From assembly GCF_036588685.1 (NCBI RefSeq), contig NC_086382.1, positions 1,612,001-1,676,000 of the forward strand: DNA of 64,000 bases, read 5' to 3'. Of this stretch, positions 2,801 through 64,000 are shown piece by piece. Under the pieces are notes generated by a model, which saw only the letters and a program-made list of their open reading frames with translations, searched no databases and was not told where the DNA came from. The translations under genes were made by a program, and so were the position numbers. The DNA is from Mytilus trossulus (taxonomy: Eukaryota). Within the stretch, counting starts at the first letter, position 1; every line of letters begins with the position of its first letter.

Positions 2801-5007
2801 AAGGAGAGTTCAGTAACCAAGCAATGCATAAAAGACACACTCAACATTGTAGTCAAACATGTTCTTGTTACATCAATAAACCATTCCTTCATTTAAAACA
2901 TTAAAAGCTTTTGGATATTGTTTTAGCTACTATTTCACGCAACTTCTTTAAGATATAAAAAAGAAGAAGTGGTATATATATATATATGATTGCCAATGAG
3001 ACAACTCTCCACAAGTGACCAAATGACATAGGAACGAACTATAGAAGCCAATATATAAAAAATTAAAAAAATCAATGTCAGGCTAAAAAACTATGCAGAT
3101 CTTGAAAAAAACATGATATTTTGAAAAAAAAAAATACCAAAGGAGTCCACCCTGAATGTACCTGCACTGTGAGGTAAGTTAATGCAATGAGGTTAAACGG
3201 GATCTCCGGTATTTGTCCATTAAACTGTAACTTGCATAATTTTCAATCAAAGGAGTTCAAATAAGAAGATATTCGTATTAGTGTTTTGTCATAGATTATA
3301 CCGTTATTTTTCTGAATTCAATTCTTTCATCTTTTTTCTTGTCGTCTACTCAACACAGTATGTTTTTTTCCTTTGCAAGGTCTTGCGGTTGCCTTTAATT
3401 GCTTACAATAAATTCACATTTGGACATCGGTTGATAATAATTGTCACATTGTCAAACATACAATATAACACCCTTATTTTTATATTTAACGTCTAAGGCA
3501 GCAACCATTTGATTTTCAGGGGGGGGGGGGGGGGGGGGGGGCTATGCATTTTTTTCTCGACAAACTTTTTTTTCCACCTTCGGTGAAGAACAATATATTT
3601 TTTTTGCGACAAGTCGAAAGCATCACATAAAGTGGCAGCTGAGGGTGACACAAACAATTTTTTTTATCTCAGGGTCAAAAACAAATTATTTTTTCTCTCC
3701 ATATACACACACTCATACCTACTGTAAGGCTTGAACAATAAATAAAACTTGTGTGCTACCTCTGAAAATAAAAGTATAGAGTAAAAGAATAGGCAAAACA
3801 TTTCACACAGACTTTAAAGGGATATCAAGCGCGTATAAATACTTTATCCGTCCATTATGAAAGGGGGTCAAACACCCGTATGGTCCACCAATTATGAAAT
3901 GGTAATCACTGCTTATCCCGTTGAAAATGCTTGTACTTTAATGGCGCTAAATTATTTGTTTAAAAAAATGCCAGAGAAGGCATGCATATATGTGAATTAA
4001 TGATAGGTATCTAGGCAAGACATACAGCTATTATATATTTTTGTTTTAGCCTAATATATATTCATTGAGAATGGCTCGAGGTCGCGAAGTTATTGTCAAG
4101 GTAGACCTGGTATGAACCAGCTTTATATGTCTGATAGTCTCAAACGTACAAAAGTTTATCATACAGTGTGTCCGACAGACAGGTCAATCAGAATGTCATG
4201 AAATAAATGTGATAATCCAGGTCATGGTACATATTGACCGTTCCATGACCGAGGTAAATTAAGGTCCTCATGCTTCAGATTCTCAAATAAGACCTAAAAT
4301 GTTTATACAGGAATTCTTATAGAAATCCATTAGAGTTATTGAAAAGAAAATAAGTGTTCGTAGTTGCTTCATAACTCCAGCATCCTTATATAATGGGGCA
4401 TAAAACTGTCAAAAAAATTATCACCGATTTGACTCAAATTCGCATATTGAATTACAACATACTGAAACTAATACCCGAATAACCGTATGAAAAGTATGAA
4501 ATAGATATTTAGCAATGCATGGACTCGATAATATATAACAACATTTCTTGTGTATTATAGTCTAGACGCCATTCAATTAACCGACGGTCAAATAACCCAA
4601 TATACACATATATACATATAAAAAAAGATTGTGAAAGTGTTCACATTTTGTTCCTTAATAATACACGGCCAAACAATCTCTTAGACTAGATAAGTGGTAA
4701 AATTGAAGGTCATGTGAATCCATCAATAAGGTCGAATTATTCACTTTTAAGTGAGAAATTTGTCAGCAATATTTCATGGCTTCTTTTGACAAAATTTTAC
4801 TAAACTGCCTGCTAAAAGCGAATTATAATTTCACTATAAGTTCACTTTCATTAAACTTTTTTTTTCATATATTGTAGCTAAAGACTGTAAAATAAACTAA
4901 AAGCAATGACAATGAACCTTTATTCGCGCCAAATATACGCACAGCATGCTGGTACATGTGTAGGTATAAACAAATAATTGAAAACGCAATATTTTGAAAG
5001 AAGAAAT

Positions 5008-7072
5008 TTAATTTGAATTTTTTAATTTGTCTTCTAATTCTAATATTTTATTATTCTTTTCCTTATTTTCATGTTCTAGGTTGTTGATTCTATTTTCAAG
5101 TCTGCTGAAATTTTCCATGATCCCAGCGTCTCCAGAAGTTTCACTGCTGTTTTCCATTTGTGACTGCTTTTCCACATCTGAAATTATAAGTTAGCGCATT
5201 ACATTGTACCCCTTCAACAATGAAATCCGCCAGACTATGGCTGTACCATAAGCATACAGTCAATTTCATTTTACTACGTTTTGTACCGTTTTACCTCATA
5301 TCATTTTTTTTTCGGTTTACGGTACCGTGACATATATGTACGAAGTGCCACGGAGACAAACATTCACCAAACTCCAACTAAGGAAGACATTAGCAATATA
5401 TAAACACATCATAGATACCAGGACTATAAATTTAGTTTAGTTTAAACATATTTTATTTACTCAAAGTAAAATGGATTGGACACAAGTAAGCCATACTTAT
5501 GAAGTCCGCTCCGAATGACAATAATTTACAATACAATATTAATATGAGCATGCAATATCAAAATAAACAACATTTTACGAGTCTATCAATTGAGAAGAAA
5601 AAAAATTAGTATGTACGCCAGACGCGCGTTTCGTCTACGAGAGACTCATCAGTGACGCTCGAATCCAAAAAGTTAAAATGGCCAAACAAAGTACGAGGTT
5701 GAAGAGCAGTGAATACAAAAATTCCTGAAAGTTTTGCCAAATACAGCTAAGGTAATCTATGCCGGAGGTAGAAAAGCCTTAGTATTTCAAAAAATTAAAA
5801 AAATTGTAAACAGCAAATTTATAAATATAACCATATCAATGACAATTCATGACAGCACAAAAAGTGCTAACTACTGGGCTTGTGATACCCGCGGGGAAAT
5901 ACATTTCCACCAGCAGTGGCATCGACCCATTGGTTGTAAATAAACTCGTCATTTAAGGTCATAGTACGGCTTGTAACAATAATAACAAAGCATACTGTAT
6001 AGTCATCTAAAAAATGGCCCCGGGCCCGACATGAAAGATGTGAAACAATTAAAATAAGAAAACTCACGGCCTTATTTGATAACAATACAATTAGCGAAAA
6101 ACAGATATGACAGACACGAGCTAACGACAACCACTGATACCAGGCTCCTGACTTTGGACAGGCACAGAAAGAATGTTGGGATTAAAAATAGTTTGAGCGC
6201 TCACTATGACAATGGTATAGCAGCACAACATAAAGAACAAACTGTGAAAAGCATTTCCAAAAGGTTTAACTCGTTAGAAACGCAAACAGATACTACCATA
6301 TAAATCATTAAACACAAAGCATCGATATAGGAGTACTCGCAGTTGCTTGAAAATATTTAAAAAGCCAATAACAACTAATAAATTAATCATGTTCTCTCCG
6401 ACTGTTTTTGTTTGTTTTGATTGTGTTCTCTATGACTCTCTCCATCTTATTGGCATTCTTGTAAATCGCACTAGTTCAATGTATTTTTGAGTTATTTGGA
6501 CTGTATATTTTGGTATTTTCAGTATTTGTGTTTACAGTGACATATATGCAGTTATTTTTGCAACTGGTGAAATAATATAAAGACTAACTTTCATTTAAGG
6601 CTGTACAATAAGGGCTACCATTGATTGGAGTTACAAACATTGTACGCAAGTCACGTTGTTTTAATAATAATAAACAATTACATTTAAAAAGTATACAAAT
6701 GTTTCTTGACAGGTTTCACTCACCTCTTCGGCCTTTGGTCGTACCATTCACGGCCCTTTTTAAGAGAAAAACCGACCGTTTCAGTTCTAAAATCTCTTTC
6801 ACCATCAATTCCTCCTTGGTCATAGTTTCACCGGTTAACAGAAACATTTCGGTCTCCAAAAAATGAATAGCTTCTGACAGTTCACTATTACTTTTTCCAT
6901 CATCGGCATTCTGTGGGTTGGCTCCGTGTAGCTCTCCGGTGTCCACGATTTTAGCATTAGTCCCTGAACGTAAGGCTCTGAAAAGCTCCCTTATAGTTAT
7001 TTTGTCACAAGTCACAGAACAAACGAAGGAAATGACACAAATGGTGAATAATAAATGACGTTTCATTATCAT
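5008..7072 (-). CDS. Uncharacterised secreted coiled-coil protein, 2 exons, about 172 aa
   Basis: Exon 1 (7072-6724) encodes a signal peptide (MIMKRHLLFTICVISFVCSVTC) and ends at a G|GTGAGT donor. Exon 2 (5177-5008) follows TTTCAG in matching phase 1 and reads DVEKQSQMENSSETSGDAGIMENFSRLENRINNLEHENKEKNNKILELEDKLKNSN*, with a heptad L/I pattern. Minus-strand AATAAA at 4924-4919. Confidence 0.75.
5401..5952 (-). mobile_element. Near-complete retrozyme-like (hammerhead-carrying, non-coding) monomer, interrupted by a 174-bp insert
   Basis: Ends repeat TAAAC(A/T)C(A/G)TCAT at 5401 and 5941. Contains an intact hammerhead. Homologous to 7235-7550, 14473-14715, 31619-31742 and 54279-54495. About 366 nt without the insert at 5437-5610. 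Confidence 0.7.
5615..5658 (-). ncRNA. Minimal type I hammerhead ribozyme (intact core)
   Basis: GCGUCA CUGAUGA GUCU-CUCGU-AGAC GAAA C-GCGC-G UC UGGCGU: stem I GCGUCA/UGGCGU, 4-bp stem II, palindromic stem III (ACGCGCGU), GUC triplet. Confidence 0.85.
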
Positions 7073-7270: not shown

Positions 7271-7314
7271 ACGCCAGACGCGCGTTTCGTCTACACAAGA
7301 CTGATCAGTGACGC
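7271..7314 (-). ncRNA. Hammerhead motif with core mutation (CUGAUCA), probably inactive; in a retrozyme-like fragment about 7235-7550
   Basis: Same scaffold as 5615-5658, but the conserved G8 is C. Confidence 0.7.
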
Positions 7315-8365
7315 TCATATCAAAATATTTATAAAGCCAAACAATTTAAAAAAAAAGTTGAAGAGCATTGAGGATCCAAAATTCCAAAACGTTGTGCAAA
7401 ATACGACTAAGGTAATCTATGCCTGGGATAAGAAAATCCTTAGTTTTTCGAAAAATCAAAAGTTTTGTAAAAAGGAAATGTATAAAAATGACCACAGTAT
7501 TGATATTCATGTCAACACCGAAATGTTGACTACTGGGCTGGTGATACCCTTGTGTTCAATACGTTTGATTCATGTAGGTATGTGAATAAATTAGATTGGG
7601 AGCAGACCAATTTATGAGCAACACAATGCCAAAAGTATCCGCAAAAAGATGTAAAATAAAATTGATAGTGAAAACGGGGAATGTGTCAAAGAGACAACAG
7701 CCCGACTAAAGAGTAGAAACCCGCCCGAGGCCACTAATGGTTTTCAATCAAGCGAAAAAATGCCTCGCAGTACTTAGCGGGCTCCATGCAGCTGGCCCCT
7801 AAAAAAATAATTTGTGTACTTGTTCAGTGAAATTAAATGGACGTCACACCACAAGGCAACTAAATGAACCAAGATATTATGTAGAGCAGTATATCAGTGA
7901 CCGCTGTGGTGGAAAGGAAACTAAATACTAATAGTCATATTGTACATTAAAAGGCGAAAAAAGTTGAATTAATGGATAACAAATAATTAAAAAAAAAAAA
8001 AAATTTTTTTTAAAAGGGGGAGGGTCAAAACAATTATCCTGTCCAAAAAAAAAAAGTATAAGTCCTTCTAAGTCTGATGAGTTTATTAAGTTTAAATACC
8101 ATGCGAAAACTGTTACTATGATAATGATTTATTTGGCGTTTTGAAAGTATATTTTTTTTCTGTAGTGGAAGTTAGAGTGTCTAGAGAGGGCCATGATAAC
8201 AATAAGTACGGAAAATACAATATAATGTGAACTAATAAACAGGTTTCTTTTATCCACCTCCCGTTTTTGGATAACTTGTATGTAAAAGGCTAGCCTAGGG
8301 CTAGACTAATGGCCATTCATTAGGCTGCCCGTAATAGTTTCTTTCCACATTCCGTGTTTGATTTG

Positions 8366-8394: not shown

Positions 8395-16797
<8,403 letters not shown>

Positions 16798-19218: not shown

Positions 19219-21782
19219 GGTGAACATTTCATCGGGAAGCCGCACGTTAGACGCGGACAGGCTACCGCGGGTCTCTCGACCATCCAGGCCGGCAAACTAT
19301 ACCCTCGGTAAATTTGTTTTACGTGGGTGAAATTTTCATCGGGAAGCCGCACGTTAGACGCGGACAGGCTACCGCGGGTCTCTCGACCATCTAGGCCGTC
19401 AAACTATACCCTCGGTAAAAAAAATTTACGTGGGTGAAATTTTCATCGGGATGTCGCACGTTAGACGCGGACAGGCATCCACGGGTCTCTCGACCAACCA
19501 GGCCGGCAAACTATACCCTCGGTAAATTTTTTTTACGTGGGTGAAATTTTTATCGGGAAGCCGCACGTTAGGCGCAGGCGAGCTACCGCGGGTCTCTCGA
19601 CCATCCAGGCCGGCAAACCATACCCTCGATAAAATTTTTCTACGTGGGTGAAATTTTCATCGGGAAGCCGCGCGTTAGACGCAGGCGAGCTACCGCGGGG
19701 CTCTCGACCATCCTGGCCGGCAAACTATACCCTCGGTAATTTTTTTTTACGGGGGTGAAATTTTCATCGGGAAGCCGCACGTTAGACGCAGGCGAGCTAC
19801 CGCGGGTCTCTTGACCAACCAGGCCGGCAAACTATACCCTCGATAAAAAATTTCTACGTGGGTAAAATTTTCATCGGGAAGCCGCACGTTAGACGCGGAC
19901 AGGCTACCGCGGGTCTCTCGACCATCTAGGCCGGCAAACTATACCCTCGGTAAAATTTGTTTACGTGGGTGAAATTTTCATCGGGAAGCCGCACGTTAGA
20001 CGCGGACAGGCTACCGCGGGTCTCTCGACCATCTAGGCCGTCAAACTATACCCTCGGTAAAAAAAATTTACGAGGGTGAAATTTTCATCGGGATGTCGCA
20101 CGTTAGATGCAGACAGGCTACCGCGGGTCTCTCGACCATCTAGGCCGTCAAACTATACCCTCGGTAAAAAAAAATTACGTGGGTGAAATTTTCATCGGGA
20201 AGCCGCACGTTAGACGCGGACAGGCTACCGCGGGTCTCTCGACCATCTAGGCCGTCAAACTATACCCTCGGTAAAAAAAAATTACGTGGGTGAAATTGTC
20301 ATCGGGAAGCCGCACGTTAGACGCGGACAGGCTACTGCGGGTCTCTCGACCATCTAGACCGTCAAACTATACCCTCGGTAAAAAAAATTTACGAGGGTGA
20401 AATTTTCATCGGGAAGCCGCACGTTAGACGCAGACAGGCTACCGCGGGTCTCTCGACCATCCAGGCCGGCAAACTATACCCTCGGTAAAAAAAATTTACG
20501 TGGGTGAAATTTTCATCGGAAAGCCGCACGTTAGACGCGGACAGGCTACTGCGGGTCTCTCGACCATCTAGACCGTCAAACTATACCCTCGGTAAAAAAA
20601 ATTTACGAGGGTGAAATTTTCATCGGGAAGCCGCACGTTAGACGCAGACAGGCTACCGCGGGTCTCTCGACCATCCAGGCCGGCAAACTATACCCTCGGT
20701 AAAAAAAAATTACGTGGGTGAAATTTTCATCGGGAGGCCGCACGTTAGACGCGGACAGGCTACCGCGGGTCTCTCGTCCATCCAGGCCGGCAAACTATGC
20801 CCTCGGTAAAAAAAAATTACGAGGGTGAACATTTCATGAGGAAGCCGCACGTTAGACGCGGACAGGCTACCGCGGGTCTCTCGACCATCTAGGCCGTCAA
20901 ACTATACCCTCGGTAAAAAAATTTTACGAGGGTGAAATTTTCATCGGGAAGCCGCACGTTAGACGCGGACAGGCTACCGCGGGTCTCTCGACCATCTAGG
21001 CCGTCAAACTATACCCTCGGTAAAAAAAATTTACGAGGGTGAAATTTTCATCGGGATGTCGCACGTTAGATGCGGACAGGCTACTGCGGGTCTCTCGACC
21101 ATCTAGGCCGTCAAACTATACCCTCGGTAAAAAAAAAATACGTTGGTGAAATTTTCATCGGGAAGCCACACATTAGACGCGGACAGGCTACCGCGGGTCT
21201 CTCGTCCATCTAGGCCGTCAAACTATGCCCGCGTTAAAAAAAATTACGAATGAACATTTCATCGGGTAGCCGCACGTTAGACGCGGACAGGCTACCGCGG
21301 GTCTCTCGACCATCTAGGCCGTCAAACTATACCCTCGGTAAAAAAAATTTACGAGGGTGAAATTTTCATCGGGATGTCGCACGTTAGATGCGGACAGGCT
21401 ACCGCGGGTCTCTCGACCATCTAGGCCGGCAAACTATACCCTCGGTAAAAAAAATTTACGTGGGTGAAATTTTCATCGGGAAGCCGCACGTTAGACGCGG
21501 ACAGGATTCCAAGGGTCTCTCGACCATCTAGGCCGTCAAACTATACCCTCGGTAAAAAAAATTTACGAGGGTGAAATTTTCATCGGGATGTCGCACGTTA
21601 GATGCGGACAGGCTACCGCGGGTCTCTCGACCATCTAGGCCGGCAATCTATACCCTCGGTAAAAAAAATTTACGTGGGTGAAATTTTCATCGGGAAGCCG
21701 CACGTTAGACGCGGACAGGCTACCGCGGGTCTCTCGACCATCTAGGCCGTCAAACTATACCCTCGGTAAAAAAAATTTACGT
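19219..21782. repeat. GC-rich 107-bp satellite array, about 24 copies
   Basis: Unit GTGAAATTTTCATCGGGAAGCCGCACGTTAGACGCGGACAGGCTACCGCGGGTCTCTCGACCATCTAGGCCGTCAAACTATACCCTCGGTAAAAAAAATTTACGTGG. ATCGGG recurs at 19231, 19338 and 19445 (period 107). Confidence 0.97.
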
Positions 21783-22299: not shown

Positions 22300-23757
22300 G
22301 AGGGGATTAAAACAACATATAAACATACACCGGACCTAAACATCTTCCCCCGTCAATTACTTATAGAAATAAGTATCGTAATATTATCCACGAATCACTC
22401 CGTACCTACTGTTCAAAATGGATAAAACAGGGAAAAAGCTGACAAAAAATCTTTTGACTCTTTTTTTGTATTCAGTAATGAACATAGTTGATATACGTAT
22501 TCAGCATTGTAAAGAACATTTTACACTTAATAATAACCACAATAAACCTATTTCTCGTATCAAACATAAACTAAAAGAACTAACCAAGGATTTTTTTTTG
22601 TCCCGGCAGATAAAGCTGCTAATAATATTATTATTGTTTGACGCAACTTTTACATTGAGGTTTTACAAAAAGAAATCACCAATTCACCAACATTACAACT
22701 GACACCATTTTCAGAAAACGACATCTGTAACAAACATACACTTTTAGCTACCGCTTTACAAGCAGAACAAAAAACAATGAAAGTCCCAACTACATTTTGT
22801 ATGTATTGGCTTCCGAAGCTAAACAAAACACCTTAAGAATATAGATTTATTTCGTCTTCAAGCCATTGTTCAACTACTAAATTATCTATTCTTCTTACCA
22901 GCACACTTGGTACAATCAAAAACCTGAAAATAAATTGTTGAAGTAAGGCCTTCAAAAACAGTGGAATTAATTACTTTTGGAATGTCAAGAACTCGTTGGA
23001 AGTACTTGATAAATTGCATGCTTATATTGGTGATTTTGAATCTGATAAAAGTTTGGATTTTTCTACCCTGTATACCATATTGCCTCCCATTCTCATTAAA
23101 AAAAGTTCCCACACCTAATATGGGCATTTAAAAAGTCAGAATGTAAATATTTATGGTAAAACTCTTTTGGGTCATTTTTTAGTAGCAATTAACAAAACAA
23201 AAACTATGTCAATTGGACATGCTTTGATTTTATATCTGCACTTGCATCTTTACTGGTTAACATTTTTGTTCGCTTTAGAGATGCCGCAAATCGTCAGGTT
23301 ATCGGAATTCTTATGGGGACTAACTGTGCACCACTTATTGCGGACCTGTTTTTGTATTGCTATGAGTTGACAAAAATCAGCAAAGACCCATCGAAACAAC
23401 ATCTGATACACATATTTAATAATACTTTTAGATATTTGGATGATATTTTGGCTCTAAATAATGACGACTTCAGTATAAATACTAAAGAAATGTATCCTGT
23501 TGAACTTACTTTAAATAAAGCTAATACTAACAATGACCACTGCCCCTTTCTCGATCTTGATATCTTTATCATTAACGGAAAGCTCAATACTAAAATTTAT
23601 GATCAAAGAGATGATTTCTCATTTCCTATGATCGTTAATTATCCATTTTTAGAAGATGCCGTTCACTTGTCACCATCTTACGGTGTTTATATATCTCAAC
23701 TTGTAAGATTCGCTCGTGAATGTAAAAATGTTTTATATTTTAACGAGAGAAATTTCT
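22300..23757 (+). mobile_element. Decayed Penelope-like retroelement, reverse transcriptase region (frameshifts and stops; 3' truncated; left boundary approximate)
   Basis: Translated fragments VPADKAANNI, YWLPKL, DFSTLYT, MGTNCAPLIADLFLYCYE, FRYLDDI, PFLDL and YGVYISQLVRFAR. Confidence 0.85.
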
Positions 23758-23852
23758 GAGGCATTGAAACCTCGCTATTACAAAATATCCGAGATAGCAC
23801 TTACATGTTTGCGAAAATTGAAGTCTTGCTATAAAAAAAAATTCCGAGATAG
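23758..23852. repeat. Left remnant of the 53-bp minisatellite (continues at 26159)
   Basis: ATTGAA.CCTCGCTATTACAAAA..TCCGAGATAG units match those at 26159-26850. Confidence 0.8.
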
Positions 23853-26158
23853 TATAAAAAAGAAGATGTGGTATGATTGCCAATAAGACAACTATCCACA
23901 AAATACCAAAATGACACAAACATTAACAACTATAGGTCACCGTACGGCCTTCAACAATGAGCAAAGCCCATACCGCATAGTCAGCTATAAAAGGCCCCGA
24001 TAAGACAATGTAAAACAATTCAAACGAGAAAATTACCTTTATTTATTTATTTATGTAAAAAAATGAACGAAAAACAAATGTGTAACACATAAACAAACGA
24101 CAACCACTGCATTACAGGCTCCTGACTTGGGACAGGCACATACATAAATAATGTGGTGGGGTTAAACATGTTAGTGGGATCCCAACCCTCCCCTAACCTT
24201 GGACAGTGGTATAACAGTACAACATAAGAACGAACTATAAAAATCAGTTGAAAAAGGCTTAACTCACCAGATAGACAAAAAATACAAGTGGACGTGGCCG
24301 GGTACTTATACATCCCGACACAAAAAGACACAATGAATAGATCTGAGAGTACTCGCAGTTATCTGACAGCTAGTTCAAAGCCACTAACAACTAATAAAAA
24401 AATCATGCCTCTAAGACTGAACAATCAATCCGTACACATCCAACATACAATGGATTTAGTGTAAAGACGCCATACACAGCCAGAGAAAAACATGACCATG
24501 TGCAATGCCAAGTTACAGGTATCAACAGATTGTAGATCCATGAAAATGTATATATGTATATAACATACTAGTAATATTTAGTTAGCTTTTAATCTACTGA
24601 TAACAACATCAATATTTATACCAATAAAAACAATATCCAATGATCTTATTACAGTGTTGAATAGGTAACCTTTTATAATAAGTTTATTTAAAGGAGCAAC
24701 AAGTTTACATGGATCATTTCCGGGCACGGTTAACAACATTTCCGTATAAATGAGGATGTGCTATCCCGTTTGAAATAAGTTTTTTACAGGTACAACCAAA
24801 CTTCAAAACCAAATCTTTATATCTATGGAAAAATTTAGTAAAGGTTTTAAGTAATTTATGGTTTAATAATTTACCAGTAATACATAGGTTGCGTTCGTTA
24901 AAATCAAAAACGTCACAACAGACACGGGCATAGCGAACAAGTTGTGAAATATAAACACCGTAAGATGGTGCCAAAGGAACATCACCATCGAAAAATCGAA
25001 ATTTAACAATAGGGAATGAAAAATGGTCTCTTTTGTCGTAAATTTTAGTGTGTAGTTTCCCGTTTAAAACCGAAATATCTAAATCCAGGAAAGGACAGTT
25101 ATTACCGAATACATTTAATTTATTTTAAGTGAGTTTCTTGGGATAAATTTCAGCAGTATATTGAGAAAATTGTTGATTATTTAACGAAAAAATATCATCA
25201 AGATAACGGTAAGTGTTGTTGAATTTATCAATTAAATGCAATTTCGACGGATCTTTACTGAGTTTAGTCATAAACTGTAATTCGTAACAGTACAAAAACA
25301 AGTCTGCTATTAAAGGGGCACAATTAGTGCCCATGGGGATACCTACAATCTGTCGATAGATTTTGTTGCCGAAAAGTACGTAAATATTATCAAGGAGAAT
25401 TTAACAGCTTCAATCATTTCATTACACCTCAAGTAAGTATAAATTATCTAGAATATTTACCTTTCTCATTAGAGAAGAAGGCTTTAAATGAGTTGCAGCA
25501 AATATATCTACATTCAGCTTTACCAAACGACCATTTAATTAAATAGGAAAACTGTTGTTTAATAAGATAGTGTGGAAGTGTAGTGTAAAGAGAAGAAAAA
25601 TCAAAACTATTAACAGAATCAAAAGGACCATCAGAAGCCCGTAATTTATCTTAAACATCCAAAGATTTTTTTACACTCCAAAAATGGTTTATACCACTAT
25701 GTTCATATATTTTATTACAATAGTTTATGATAAGCTCTTTAATAGTAGTTAATGAACTAGTTAAGAGCACTGACAGATAACACTAGAACACTTACTAGAG
25801 GCCGAGATGAAACGATATTTAAATGGTTTTTTGTGTAGTTTAGGTAGCCAATACATAGTAGGAACCTTCAAATGTTCAGAAGAAGCCTTAAGCTTTGATG
25901 TGGTTGTGATATGCTTGTTTACTATATTACTCTCTGTGAAGCGGATGGACTTGAATGTAGATGAATTTAAAATTTCATTCTTAAGAACGTCCGTGTAGTA
26001 TTTACGTCATACCACAACCACATTGTTGGCTGCTTTGTCGGCCGGTACAAACACAAACCGCTTTGAAAATATTTGAAGTTAATTTCTTATTTTGGAAATA
26101 GGTGTATTATGTACTCTTTTATTTACTTCTAAATTATTATCTTATCTACCACATTTAA
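23853..26158 (-). mobile_element. 5'-truncated Penelope-like retroelement: RT pseudogene (about 26140-24578) plus about 0.7-kb 3' non-coding region
   Basis: Minus-strand FVFVPADKAANN, YWLPKLHK, FDFSSLYTTLPH, GIPMGTNCAPLIADLFLYCYE, YRYLDDI, PFLDL and SYGVYISQLVRYAR. The frame ends ...RLKAN* at 24578 with no C-terminal GIY-YIG. Inserted precisely within a minisatellite unit (GATAG|CCCTACATG). Confidence 0.85.
24104..24209 (-). ncRNA. Twister-ribozyme-like motif (P5-type permutation) in the 3' region of the Penelope-like element
   Basis: CCACUG..AGGUU-AGGG-GA-GGG-uuGGGAUCCC-acu-AACAUGUU-UAA-CCCC-ACC-ACAU..AUGU-G-CCUG-U-CCC-AA-GU-CAGG-AGCCU..CAGUGG. All twister blocks are present: UAA cleavage loop, P2, T1 CCC/GGG, T2 AC/GU, P3, P4, P5. 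Confidence 0.7.
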
Positions 26159-26850
26159 CCCTACATGTTTGCGAAGATTGAAGTCTCCCTATTACAAAAC
26201 GTCCAAATCAGCCCTAAATGTTTGTGAAGATTGAAGCCTTCCGAGATAGCCCTACAAGTTACCGAAGATTAAAGCTTCGCTATTACAAAACTTCCGAGAC
26301 AGCACTACATGTAAGCGAAGATTAAAGCCTCGTTATTACAAAACTTCCGAGACAGCACTACATGTTTGTGAAGATTGAAGCCTTCCGAGATAGCCCTACA
26401 AGTTACCGAAGATTAAAGCTTCGCTATTACAAAACTTCCGAGACAGCACTACATGTAAGCGAAGATTAAAGCCTCGTTATTACAAAACTTCCGAGACAGC
26501 ACTACATGTTAGCGAAGATTAAAGCCTCGCTATTACAAAACTTCCGAGACGGTCCTACATGTTTCCGAAGATTGAAGCCTCGCTATTACAAAACTTGCGA
26601 GAAAGCCCTACATGTAAGCGAAGATTGAAGTATCACTAAACAAAAGTTCGGAGACAGCCCTACAGCAAAGTACATGTAAGTTATGATCGAAGTAGCTACA
26701 TCTGCCTATCACAGAACTTTTGACACAACCCTACATGCTAGCCAAGATTGAAGCATCGCTATTACAAAAACTTCCGAGGTAGCCCTACATGTACAATGTA
26801 ATTGAAAATCGACAGACCCTACATGTTAGCCACGATTGAAGCATCGGTCA
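26159..26850. repeat. 53-bp minisatellite with 38-bp deletion variants
   Basis: CTACATGT.AGCGAAGATTAAAGCCTCGCTATTACAAAACTTCCGAGACAGCA. Unit starts at 26305, 26358, 26396 and 26449 give spacings of 53, 38 and 53. Confidence 0.9.
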
Positions 26851-27739
26851 TTATAACAAACCCCAAGGTAGCCCGTTATATTCTCCTAGTGCACGTGATC
26901 CTCGGCAATATACCTTACTAGTATTTGCATGCTAACTGTACATATTTATATAGATTAGGCCGTTGGTTTGCCCGTGTGAATGGTTTTACACTAATAATTT
27001 TGGGCCCTTTATAGCTTGTTGTTCTGTGTGAGGCAAGGCTCCGTGTTGAAGGCCGTACTTTGACCTATAATGGTTTATTTTTAAAAATTATTATTTGGAT
27101 GGAGAGTTGTCTCATTGACACTCACACCACATCTTCCTATATCTATATATTATACATTTTTACTCGCTCTCAAATGGCTATATAACGTTCCTTTTTTCGT
27201 TTTTCTTTATAATATATAATTTATACCGTGTGCCTTCCGCTCTGAAGTATTTTAATTATCAATGAATGCATTGTATTGTTTGTCTAATTAATGACAGTGA
27301 CCGATACGCACTGTTGTGTCATGTATTTTGTCATTGTTTGGTTATAAATAGTTTGTACTAGGTAAATTAATTGTTTTATTTTCAATTATTGTTCATCCCT
27401 ACTTTTTGCATACTGTAATTGATAAACAATATTTAGATAAAGTTTCGGTTAGTATATATTATATATGCAGCAGACTAGACGAGTCTGAGAAACTGCACTA
27501 ATGGCACATGTGTGGTACCAGATTCATGCACAAAATAGCAACAAATTCATCATAATTATGCTTTAATGTGATTTCAGGTAATTCATTGACGCCTGATTTT
27601 ATGTCTTTTTTTGTTTTGTCTTTTGATAAATCGTCGTTAATTGTTATGTTTTTTTATTTAAATGTAAAAATTCGTCCATATTGGTAACCACGAATGTTGG
27701 TAACATATTGCAAGTTTTGTCTAGTCGAATGTGAGGTAA

Positions 27740-27792: not shown

Positions 27793-63575
<35,783 letters not shown>

Positions 63576-64000
63576 GTATGATGTCAGATAGAAAATAGAC
63601 AAAGGGGACAATAAAATCCGTATTGGGAATACAAACTGTCAATGCTTTTTTAACTTTTAGACTTCCAAAGCGAGTTATTATTTTTTTTACAATCAATTCA
63701 AAAAGGGTCTTAAGTCTTACAAGATCCGGTGAAGTATTCCGAGTTTTGCATGAGGGAGATATATTCCTCAAATTATGACTGTCTTATGTGATAAATGTTG
63801 AAACAAAAAGTACTTGCAAACACTTTAATGTTTTCTCGCTACATTGAAGACCTGTTTGGGACCTTCTGCTGTTGTTTTTTTCTTTGGTCGGGTTGTTGTC
63901 TCTTTGACGCATTCCCAATTTCCATTATCAATTTTAATTGTACTTTAATACCATGTGAAAAAGTTAAAATGATTTATCTAAACTGTATCAATTAACTACT

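Follow-up and report, generated by a model that had tools for sequence, protein, structure and literature searches.

The insertion at positions 23853-26158 of the window (the whole 64,000-nucleotide stretch of Mytilus trossulus DNA analysed here) is one dead, front-truncated copy of a Penelope-like element, and the family to which it belongs is almost certainly Naiad, to judge from its sequence features. Our main reading, to which we assign a probability of about 0.6, is that intact members of this family combine a likely selenoprotein with a predicted self-cleaving ribozyme, a P5-permuted twister that is likely paired through palindromes. The selenocysteine codons, the SECIS element, the P5 permutation, and the palindromes that replace P1 were all absent from an earlier note on this DNA.

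The reverse transcriptase (RT) remnant and its tail interrupt one unit of a 53-bp minisatellite (Table 1). When 23853-26158 was excised, the flanks rejoined as a single 53-bp unit (..TTCCGAGATAG directly followed by CCCTACATG..), in agreement with the one insertion of RT and tail that had been proposed. No target duplication was visible at the flanks of 23853-26158. A (TA)n target bias is an optional trait of Naiads; 3' flanks were AT-rich, with short TA runs at their start, and the copy described here sits in the minisatellite. As previously noted, the RT frame ends at 24578 (minus strand) and is not followed by a C-terminal endonuclease; the non-coding tail, which had been put at about 720 bp, measured 725 bp (23853-24577) and had the terminus quoted. 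A second broken RT fragment of the Naiad type, from another family, was observed at 22332-23753 (plus strand; 41-63% amino-acid identity to the sister ORF) and runs up to the left end of the minisatellite. Tandem arrays were also present at 19219-21782 (107 bp x 24) and 9656-9966 (25 bp x 12).

Table 1. Features of the insertion and of related repeats in the window.
Feature	Position	Strand	Basis or remark
Insertion of a dead subfamily C Naiad (Penelope-like), truncated at the 5' end	23853..26158	-	Colinear 89-93% identical copies elsewhere, same end base
Interrupted 53-bp minisatellite, left part	23763..23852	+	78-85% to array units
Interrupted 53-bp minisatellite, right part	26159..26860	+	TRF and array comparison
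Broken RT coding region	24578..26158	-	71-78% amino-acid identity to intact sister ORF for most of five pieces
RT landmarks: DKA; YLDD; stop TAA	26039-26031; 25205-25194; 24580-24578	-	
In-frame UGA, likely selenocysteine, eight codons after DKA	26007..26009	-	Subfamily copies; recoded likewise in clam and spider Naiads (PMC8557442, accessible part)
SECIS hairpin	24412..24480	-	5' core AUGG in window copy, AUGA in family
P5-permuted twister fold (predicted)	24115..24200	-	Core matches, family parse, covariation
Twister parts: GAGGG; UAA; P3; P4/L4	24190-24186; 24164-24162; 24155-24137; 24136-24121	-	
Palindrome 1, 10 nt	24175..24184	-	Begins one base past GAGGG; retained in four families, each with its own sequence
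Palindrome 2, 8 nt	24165..24172	-	Ends directly before UAA; family parse
Predicted cut	between 24164 and 24163	-	Twister fold model
Short 5'-truncated subfamily C copy, worn twister	50215..50663	-	91-92% to subfamily tails; fold degraded
Short subfamily C terminus copy	42808..42875	-	90-92%
Terminus copy, younger sister family B	26945..27146	+	93% to L033 tail; 69-71% to C
Terminus copy, sister family B	48505..48716	-	89% to L033 tail
B-like older tail copy	28420..28760	+	80% to B, 69% to C
C-like diverged terminus copy	29294..29439	+	74-81% to C
Further C-like copies	2954-3028, 30007-30279, 39803-39893, 45039-45125		74-81% to C
Family A tails	7654-7832, 12961-13378, 63832-63939		

Compared with an intact relative by tblastn, the RT of the window copy fell into five pieces in alternating frames with four stops, one of which is the conserved UGA at 26009-26007; Pfam recognised RVT_1 weakly (15.6 bits). 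Longer copies carry an N-terminal GIY-YIG region, which the truncated window copy itself lacks: it was found in three C loci (L044/L085, L049, and L086; 65-86% to amino acids 7-243 of L033) and in the sister family B. This family is younger, with copies that are 99% alike, 75% DNA identity to C, and full-length members of 4.44 kb. Its member L033 has a 1002-amino-acid frame, interrupted only by five TGA codons, in which a GIY-YIG-type region is followed by CxC, DKA, and the RT. CxC reads U-D-C in L033, and DKA replaces DKG both in L033 and in the window copy (26039). The N-terminal region of L033 matched, by eye, the published Naiad_Scon endonuclease, and a Pfam search of the full L033 protein named no endonuclease family.

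Three C loci and family B share the same five in-frame TGA codons, each at a cysteine position, and single copies or family A carry TGC or TGT at two of the five. At the codon eight positions after DKA, TGA was present in 11 of the 13 parsed C copies and TGC in the other two. The SECIS hairpin, with AUGA, an AA loop, and a GA core, follows the stop at about 100 nt; the AUGA core was kept in 19 out of 23 parsed copies. The Rfam model SECIS_1 gave 24.8 and 24.3 bits in L042/L044 and 28.4 bits (E 0.003) in the sister family, against a cut-off of 35, and the folding z-score of the hairpin in L033 was -3.1. Intact members likely make an endonuclease-RT protein that contains selenocysteine. In family A, TGA was observed at the codon eight after DKA and cysteine at CxC, together with a hairpin resembling a SECIS element by eye.

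The clam elements Naiad_Scon and Naiad_Mmer (Craig et al. 2021; accessible part of PMC8557442) are alike in having an N-terminal GIY-YIG, DKA, partial tandems, and a SECIS element after the stop; they also have UGA at the first CCHH cysteine, at the cysteine before GIY-YIG, and at the codon eight after DKA, and three of the five TGA positions found here are those recoded in them. However, the family described here has five UGA codons, including the first cysteine of CxC, a position absent from the relevant section of that paper, against three or four in the clam Naiads, in which the SECIS element lies only 1-21 nt after the stop. Moreover, the host here is a mussel, whereas the two published mussel Naiads are not marked as selenoproteins in the accessible part of that paper. 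A search for selenocysteine in Penelope retrotransposons of Mytilus found nothing beyond PMC8557442 in the literature covered.

The twister-like motif described in the earlier note was found to exceed chance by its copy number and covariation, though it scored far below the Rfam cut-off. At 24200-24115, Rfam gave only a twister-P1 match of 17.2 bits against a cut-off of 67.2, with no twister-P5 match; a second twister-P1 score, of 14.4 bits, was likewise below this cut-off, and no twister was reported in the whole window at E <= 1. Only a weak P1 match was obtained because the motif is permuted, with GAGGG upstream of UAA and P5 closing the ends. Folding-energy z-scores (+1.4 for the window motif and -0.8) were not significant, and the motif in the window is therefore not shown by its folding energy. 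Across the genome, exact core matches numbered 14,439, against 0 for the reversed control, and a shorter core pattern and the fourth family gave 19,421 and 6,921 matches, respectively (reversed control 0 each).

A family parse took in 64 of the 97 distinct cores, the remainder being truncated or mutated upstream; the catalytic GAG and NAA were present in all 64, which the parse itself requires. Families A, B, C, and D keep P2, P3, P4, P5, T1, and T2 with different letters, and covarying pairs were found in P2, P5, and the pseudoknot across the four. T1 pairs as CCC/GGG, CCU/AGG, or ACC/GGU, and T2, known from the family parse only, as GC/GU or AC/GU, while P5 stems of 5-10 bp are family-specific. 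The middle T1 pair is changed in cnidarian copies, so that covariation is seen somewhere for each of the three T1 pairs. In family D, P2 has only 2-3 pairs and T1 is mismatched in 12 out of 22 copies. An unfitted alignment of 11 copies, which are related and of which four rows are shifted by one column in P5, had 86% of its cells paired (at most 59% in slid controls) and 6 of 15 pairs changed on both sides; columns A52/A53 and G21/A22 were invariant in all 11 copies and P4 never varied. The fold is very probably under selection, and it is probably active in self-cleavage. No hammerhead matched in 23853-24600 or in the L033 tail (Rfam, E <= 10). Overall, the Naiad features, the conserved fold, and this absence bear out the proposal of a Penelope-like lineage that would use a twister fold and not a hammerhead. 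Twister cores of other Naiad families were observed at 1391 (-), 50726 (-), 63176 (+), 6162 (-), and 13229 (-); the core at 1391 matches by eye the published Naiad_Mgal tail, which family D also matches.

To extend the comparison, published tails were inspected by eye in the accessible part of the PMC8557442 supplement (34 of 54 Naiad tails, 30 recognised by header and 4 by motif search, with names taken from the file order). The same twister with two palindromes was seen in seven of the 34 tails (Mgal, Bpla, Mphi, Scon, Mmer, 1_Movir, and 4_Chem), two of them the clam elements compared above. It was absent from the last 500-600 nt of the other 27; Naiads can therefore spread lacking that twister. 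The available tails suggest that this slot may always hold some ribozyme. Within the same set, the oyster, ark clam, pearl oyster, hemichordate, and two Clytia Naiads had in common a different, conserved motif with a central palindrome, and several other tails contained hammerhead cores in reversed order, with GAAA before CUGAUGA.

Canonical P1 is not formed in these folds: 0-2 of its 4 pairs are possible, and both of the nearest pairs are U-U. Its place is taken by a linker of 20-23 nt made of two palindromes, the first 1-2 nt after GAGGG and the second just before UAA, which differ by family and, within B, in a two-sided variant (GGGCCC/GGATCC). Both palindromes arose in 0.05-1.1% of linker shuffles, depending on the family. 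Linker homodimers were predicted at -12.5 to -18.2 kcal/mol, with the monomer at about 0 (unfolded); three linkers were strong relative to shuffles (2-4% as good; one of the three was mis-split), and the family D homodimer did not outdo shuffles, 22% of which were as good. On these models we lean towards dimer-dependent cleavage through the palindromes that replace P1. Cleavage by a monomer without P1, the palindromes then having some other function (protein binding, for instance, or dimerising the RNA for RNP assembly), is unlikely, even though minimum-energy folds of single copies already give P5, P3, and P4 and the accessible text of PMC8501958 reports slow or inefficient cleavage without P1 and weak P1 stems in Schistosoma mansoni. 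Every family has palindromes directly adjoining the missing P1 on both sides, and in the predicted monomer folds the GGG and UU strand is often paired with the strand of the cleavage site.

The 3' end of the element is fixed and lies about 310 nt beyond the predicted cut. In family B, 35 end-to-start junctions (partial tandems, pLTR) were found together with heavy 5' truncation, and the terminus is also fixed in C. The earlier note had expected element 5' ends to map to the twister cut; at the DNA level there was no pile-up, and no excess of integrated 5' ends at the cut was detected in 20 inspected loci, in family B pattern counts, or at 30 junctions. The cut therefore does not determine the template's 5' end. 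Since no measured junction lies at 305 nt, the upstream repeat expected from a cut template, and no end excess was seen, the template is uncut or re-ligated at the cut site. Three RNA-seq runs and one small-RNA run, compared with the sister element, contained unstranded read-through of the tail and, among the matches listed, no end at the cut, a result that says nothing either way on cleavage. Small RNAs of about 30 nt from both strands of the tail (L033:5598-6438, run X19) were piRNA-like. A 254-bp mini-tandem of the end-to-start junction was observed at L133/L134/L154 (G000:C1 about 87805388-87805929); composed of 65 nt of tail and 190 nt of start, without a twister, it is a candidate non-autonomous derivative.

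An absence of ends at the cut is also expected from an inactive fold. A twister-derived structure that no longer cleaves and serves RT binding, stability, or translation would accord with this lack of a DNA footprint, and with Poseidon, whose RT starts internally and whose insertion in vitro needed no hammerhead cleavage (accessible text of PMC11167929). We nevertheless regard it as distinctly improbable, as the catalytic G, the A of the cleavage site, and both pseudoknots persist across the range from mussels to cnidarians although the stems change. Less probable still, and strongly disfavoured, is a cut that sets the 5' end of the integrated template, the role known for S. mansoni twister variants (accessible text of PMC8501958): among the 20 inspected loci without the upstream pattern, one starts at the cut and three nearby, but an 8-base extension up to the cut in family B kept 3129 of 3890 matches (80%; a loss of 20%, the control step) and the next 8 bases, across the cut, kept 2719 of 3129 (87%; a loss of 13%). 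Moreover, in the 30 of 35 family B junctions that were measured, upstream repeats ranged from 30 to >1500 nt, with none at 305 and 13 longer.

Whether the RT and the tail form one unit was assessed with a 91-amino-acid RT piece as query (150 scored out of 18,477 candidates). Of the best 29 other RT loci, some of which are duplicates of one event, 25 run into the tail (15 to the same terminus, 7 past the twister, and 3 into the tail), and the other 4 stop at the RT or within it; the unrelated 3' flanks that would speak for separate elements were not seen. Because RT loci continue into it, the tail is the element's own 3' region and not an adjacent SINE. An independent SINE abutting an RT fragment, for which one could cite tail-only short copies that far outnumber RT-bearing ones, is hardly credible and was ruled out by these 25 loci, the more so as families A and B have RT-linked tails of their own and the SECIS element fits the UGA codons of the ORF. 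RT linkage in family A was observed at L081:6270-6930 and L054.

The ten short copies that had been listed as sharing the terminus all exist, with 68-91% identity to it (E <= 3e-9), and several are longer than listed, e.g. 26945-27146 and 28420-28760. The claim that 23853-26158 was their parent did not hold, as it is a dead copy and only two of the ten belong to its subfamily (>=90%). Of the two origins offered for the short repeats, truncation was retained and non-autonomous derivation was not: 5'-truncated copies of several autonomous families are favoured over SINEs. The most plausible reading of the short repeats is that several related families gave rise to them as 5'-truncated products, with the window copy as a sibling.

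Under the mechanism that we propose for the palindrome-paired twister, transcripts of tandem copies would carry two twisters, which would dimerise via the palindromes, cut, and release unit-length RNA. This RNA might be re-ligated to a circle, a step that we hold to be rather doubtful. Reverse transcription would begin within uncut or re-ligated RNA, at the fixed terminus, and an early stop of the RT, as the usual outcome, would leave many short tails. A lone twister would mostly be off and would spare the SECIS-bearing mRNA. More broadly, and with somewhat less than even confidence, Naiads from cnidarians to bivalves may have an obligate-dimer twister with a shared palindromic P1, which would have evolved in parallel to the dimeric hammerheads of other Penelope-like elements. 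This twister would cut the transcripts of tandem copies of an element with five selenocysteines into RNAs of unit length, possibly circular, ribozyme classes having been swapped in the same slot.

Among described ribozymes, the type-P5 twister (Rfam clan CL00120; accessible parts of PMC6154101 and PMC8501958) shares UAA, GAGGG, P2, P3, P4/L4, T1, T2, and the opening at P5. The predicted ribozyme described here differs in having no canonical P1, a two-palindrome linker of 20-23 nt, and a score below the Rfam cut-off. The minimal hammerheads of Penelope pLTRs, whose stem III is palindromic and which, in tandem transcripts, likely cleave as dimers (accessible text of PMC6765202), occupy the same terminal-repeat position on the sense strand with a palindrome in place of a helix; they belong, however, to an unrelated ribozyme class, and two palindromes are present here. 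Known links between twisters and retroelements sit at the 5' ends of RTE-type elements (accessible text of PMC8501958). Among these, the Perere-3 variants of S. mansoni are likewise retrotransposon twisters with P1 weak or absent, but are P1-type, lie at the 5' end, and cut beside the target duplication, whereas the twister described here is P5-type, lies in the 3' tail, and has no ends at its cut.

The paper that defined Naiads reported no canonical hammerhead and considered ribozymes perhaps dispensable or parasitic for Penelope-like elements; the word 'twister' has 0 occurrences in its accessible text (PMC8557442). No Naiad twister was found in literature on twisters, Penelope-like elements, Mytilus, retrotransposons, or dimer cleavage, a search largely confined to sources outside subscription, and main-text term searches of two 2026 preprints, one on retrozymes and one surveying ribozymes, returned no link between twisters and Naiads. 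A twister in the hammerhead slot, with the same palindrome-for-helix design, would point to selection for pair-dependent self-cleavage, and an RNA of 90 nt would allow a direct test of what ribozymes do in Penelope-like elements. Tens of thousands of twister-like copies that lack annotation would be added in one genome, along with a twister architecture of which we found no description and a lineage of mussel selenoprotein retrotransposons that spreads SECIS elements.

Hammerheads were observed elsewhere in the window. Five near-identical 1786-bp units (54401-62422, plus strand) lie inside a repeat region at ~45600-63800, and every unit contains a type I hammerhead (33 bits) as well as short cysteine-rich exons, which are presumably EGF-like. 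These units look like part of a retrozyme that was amplified along with an array of tandem exons. More type I hammerheads, likely copies of mussel retrozymes, were present at 5615-5658 (-), 7271-7314 (-), and 31648-31691 (+).
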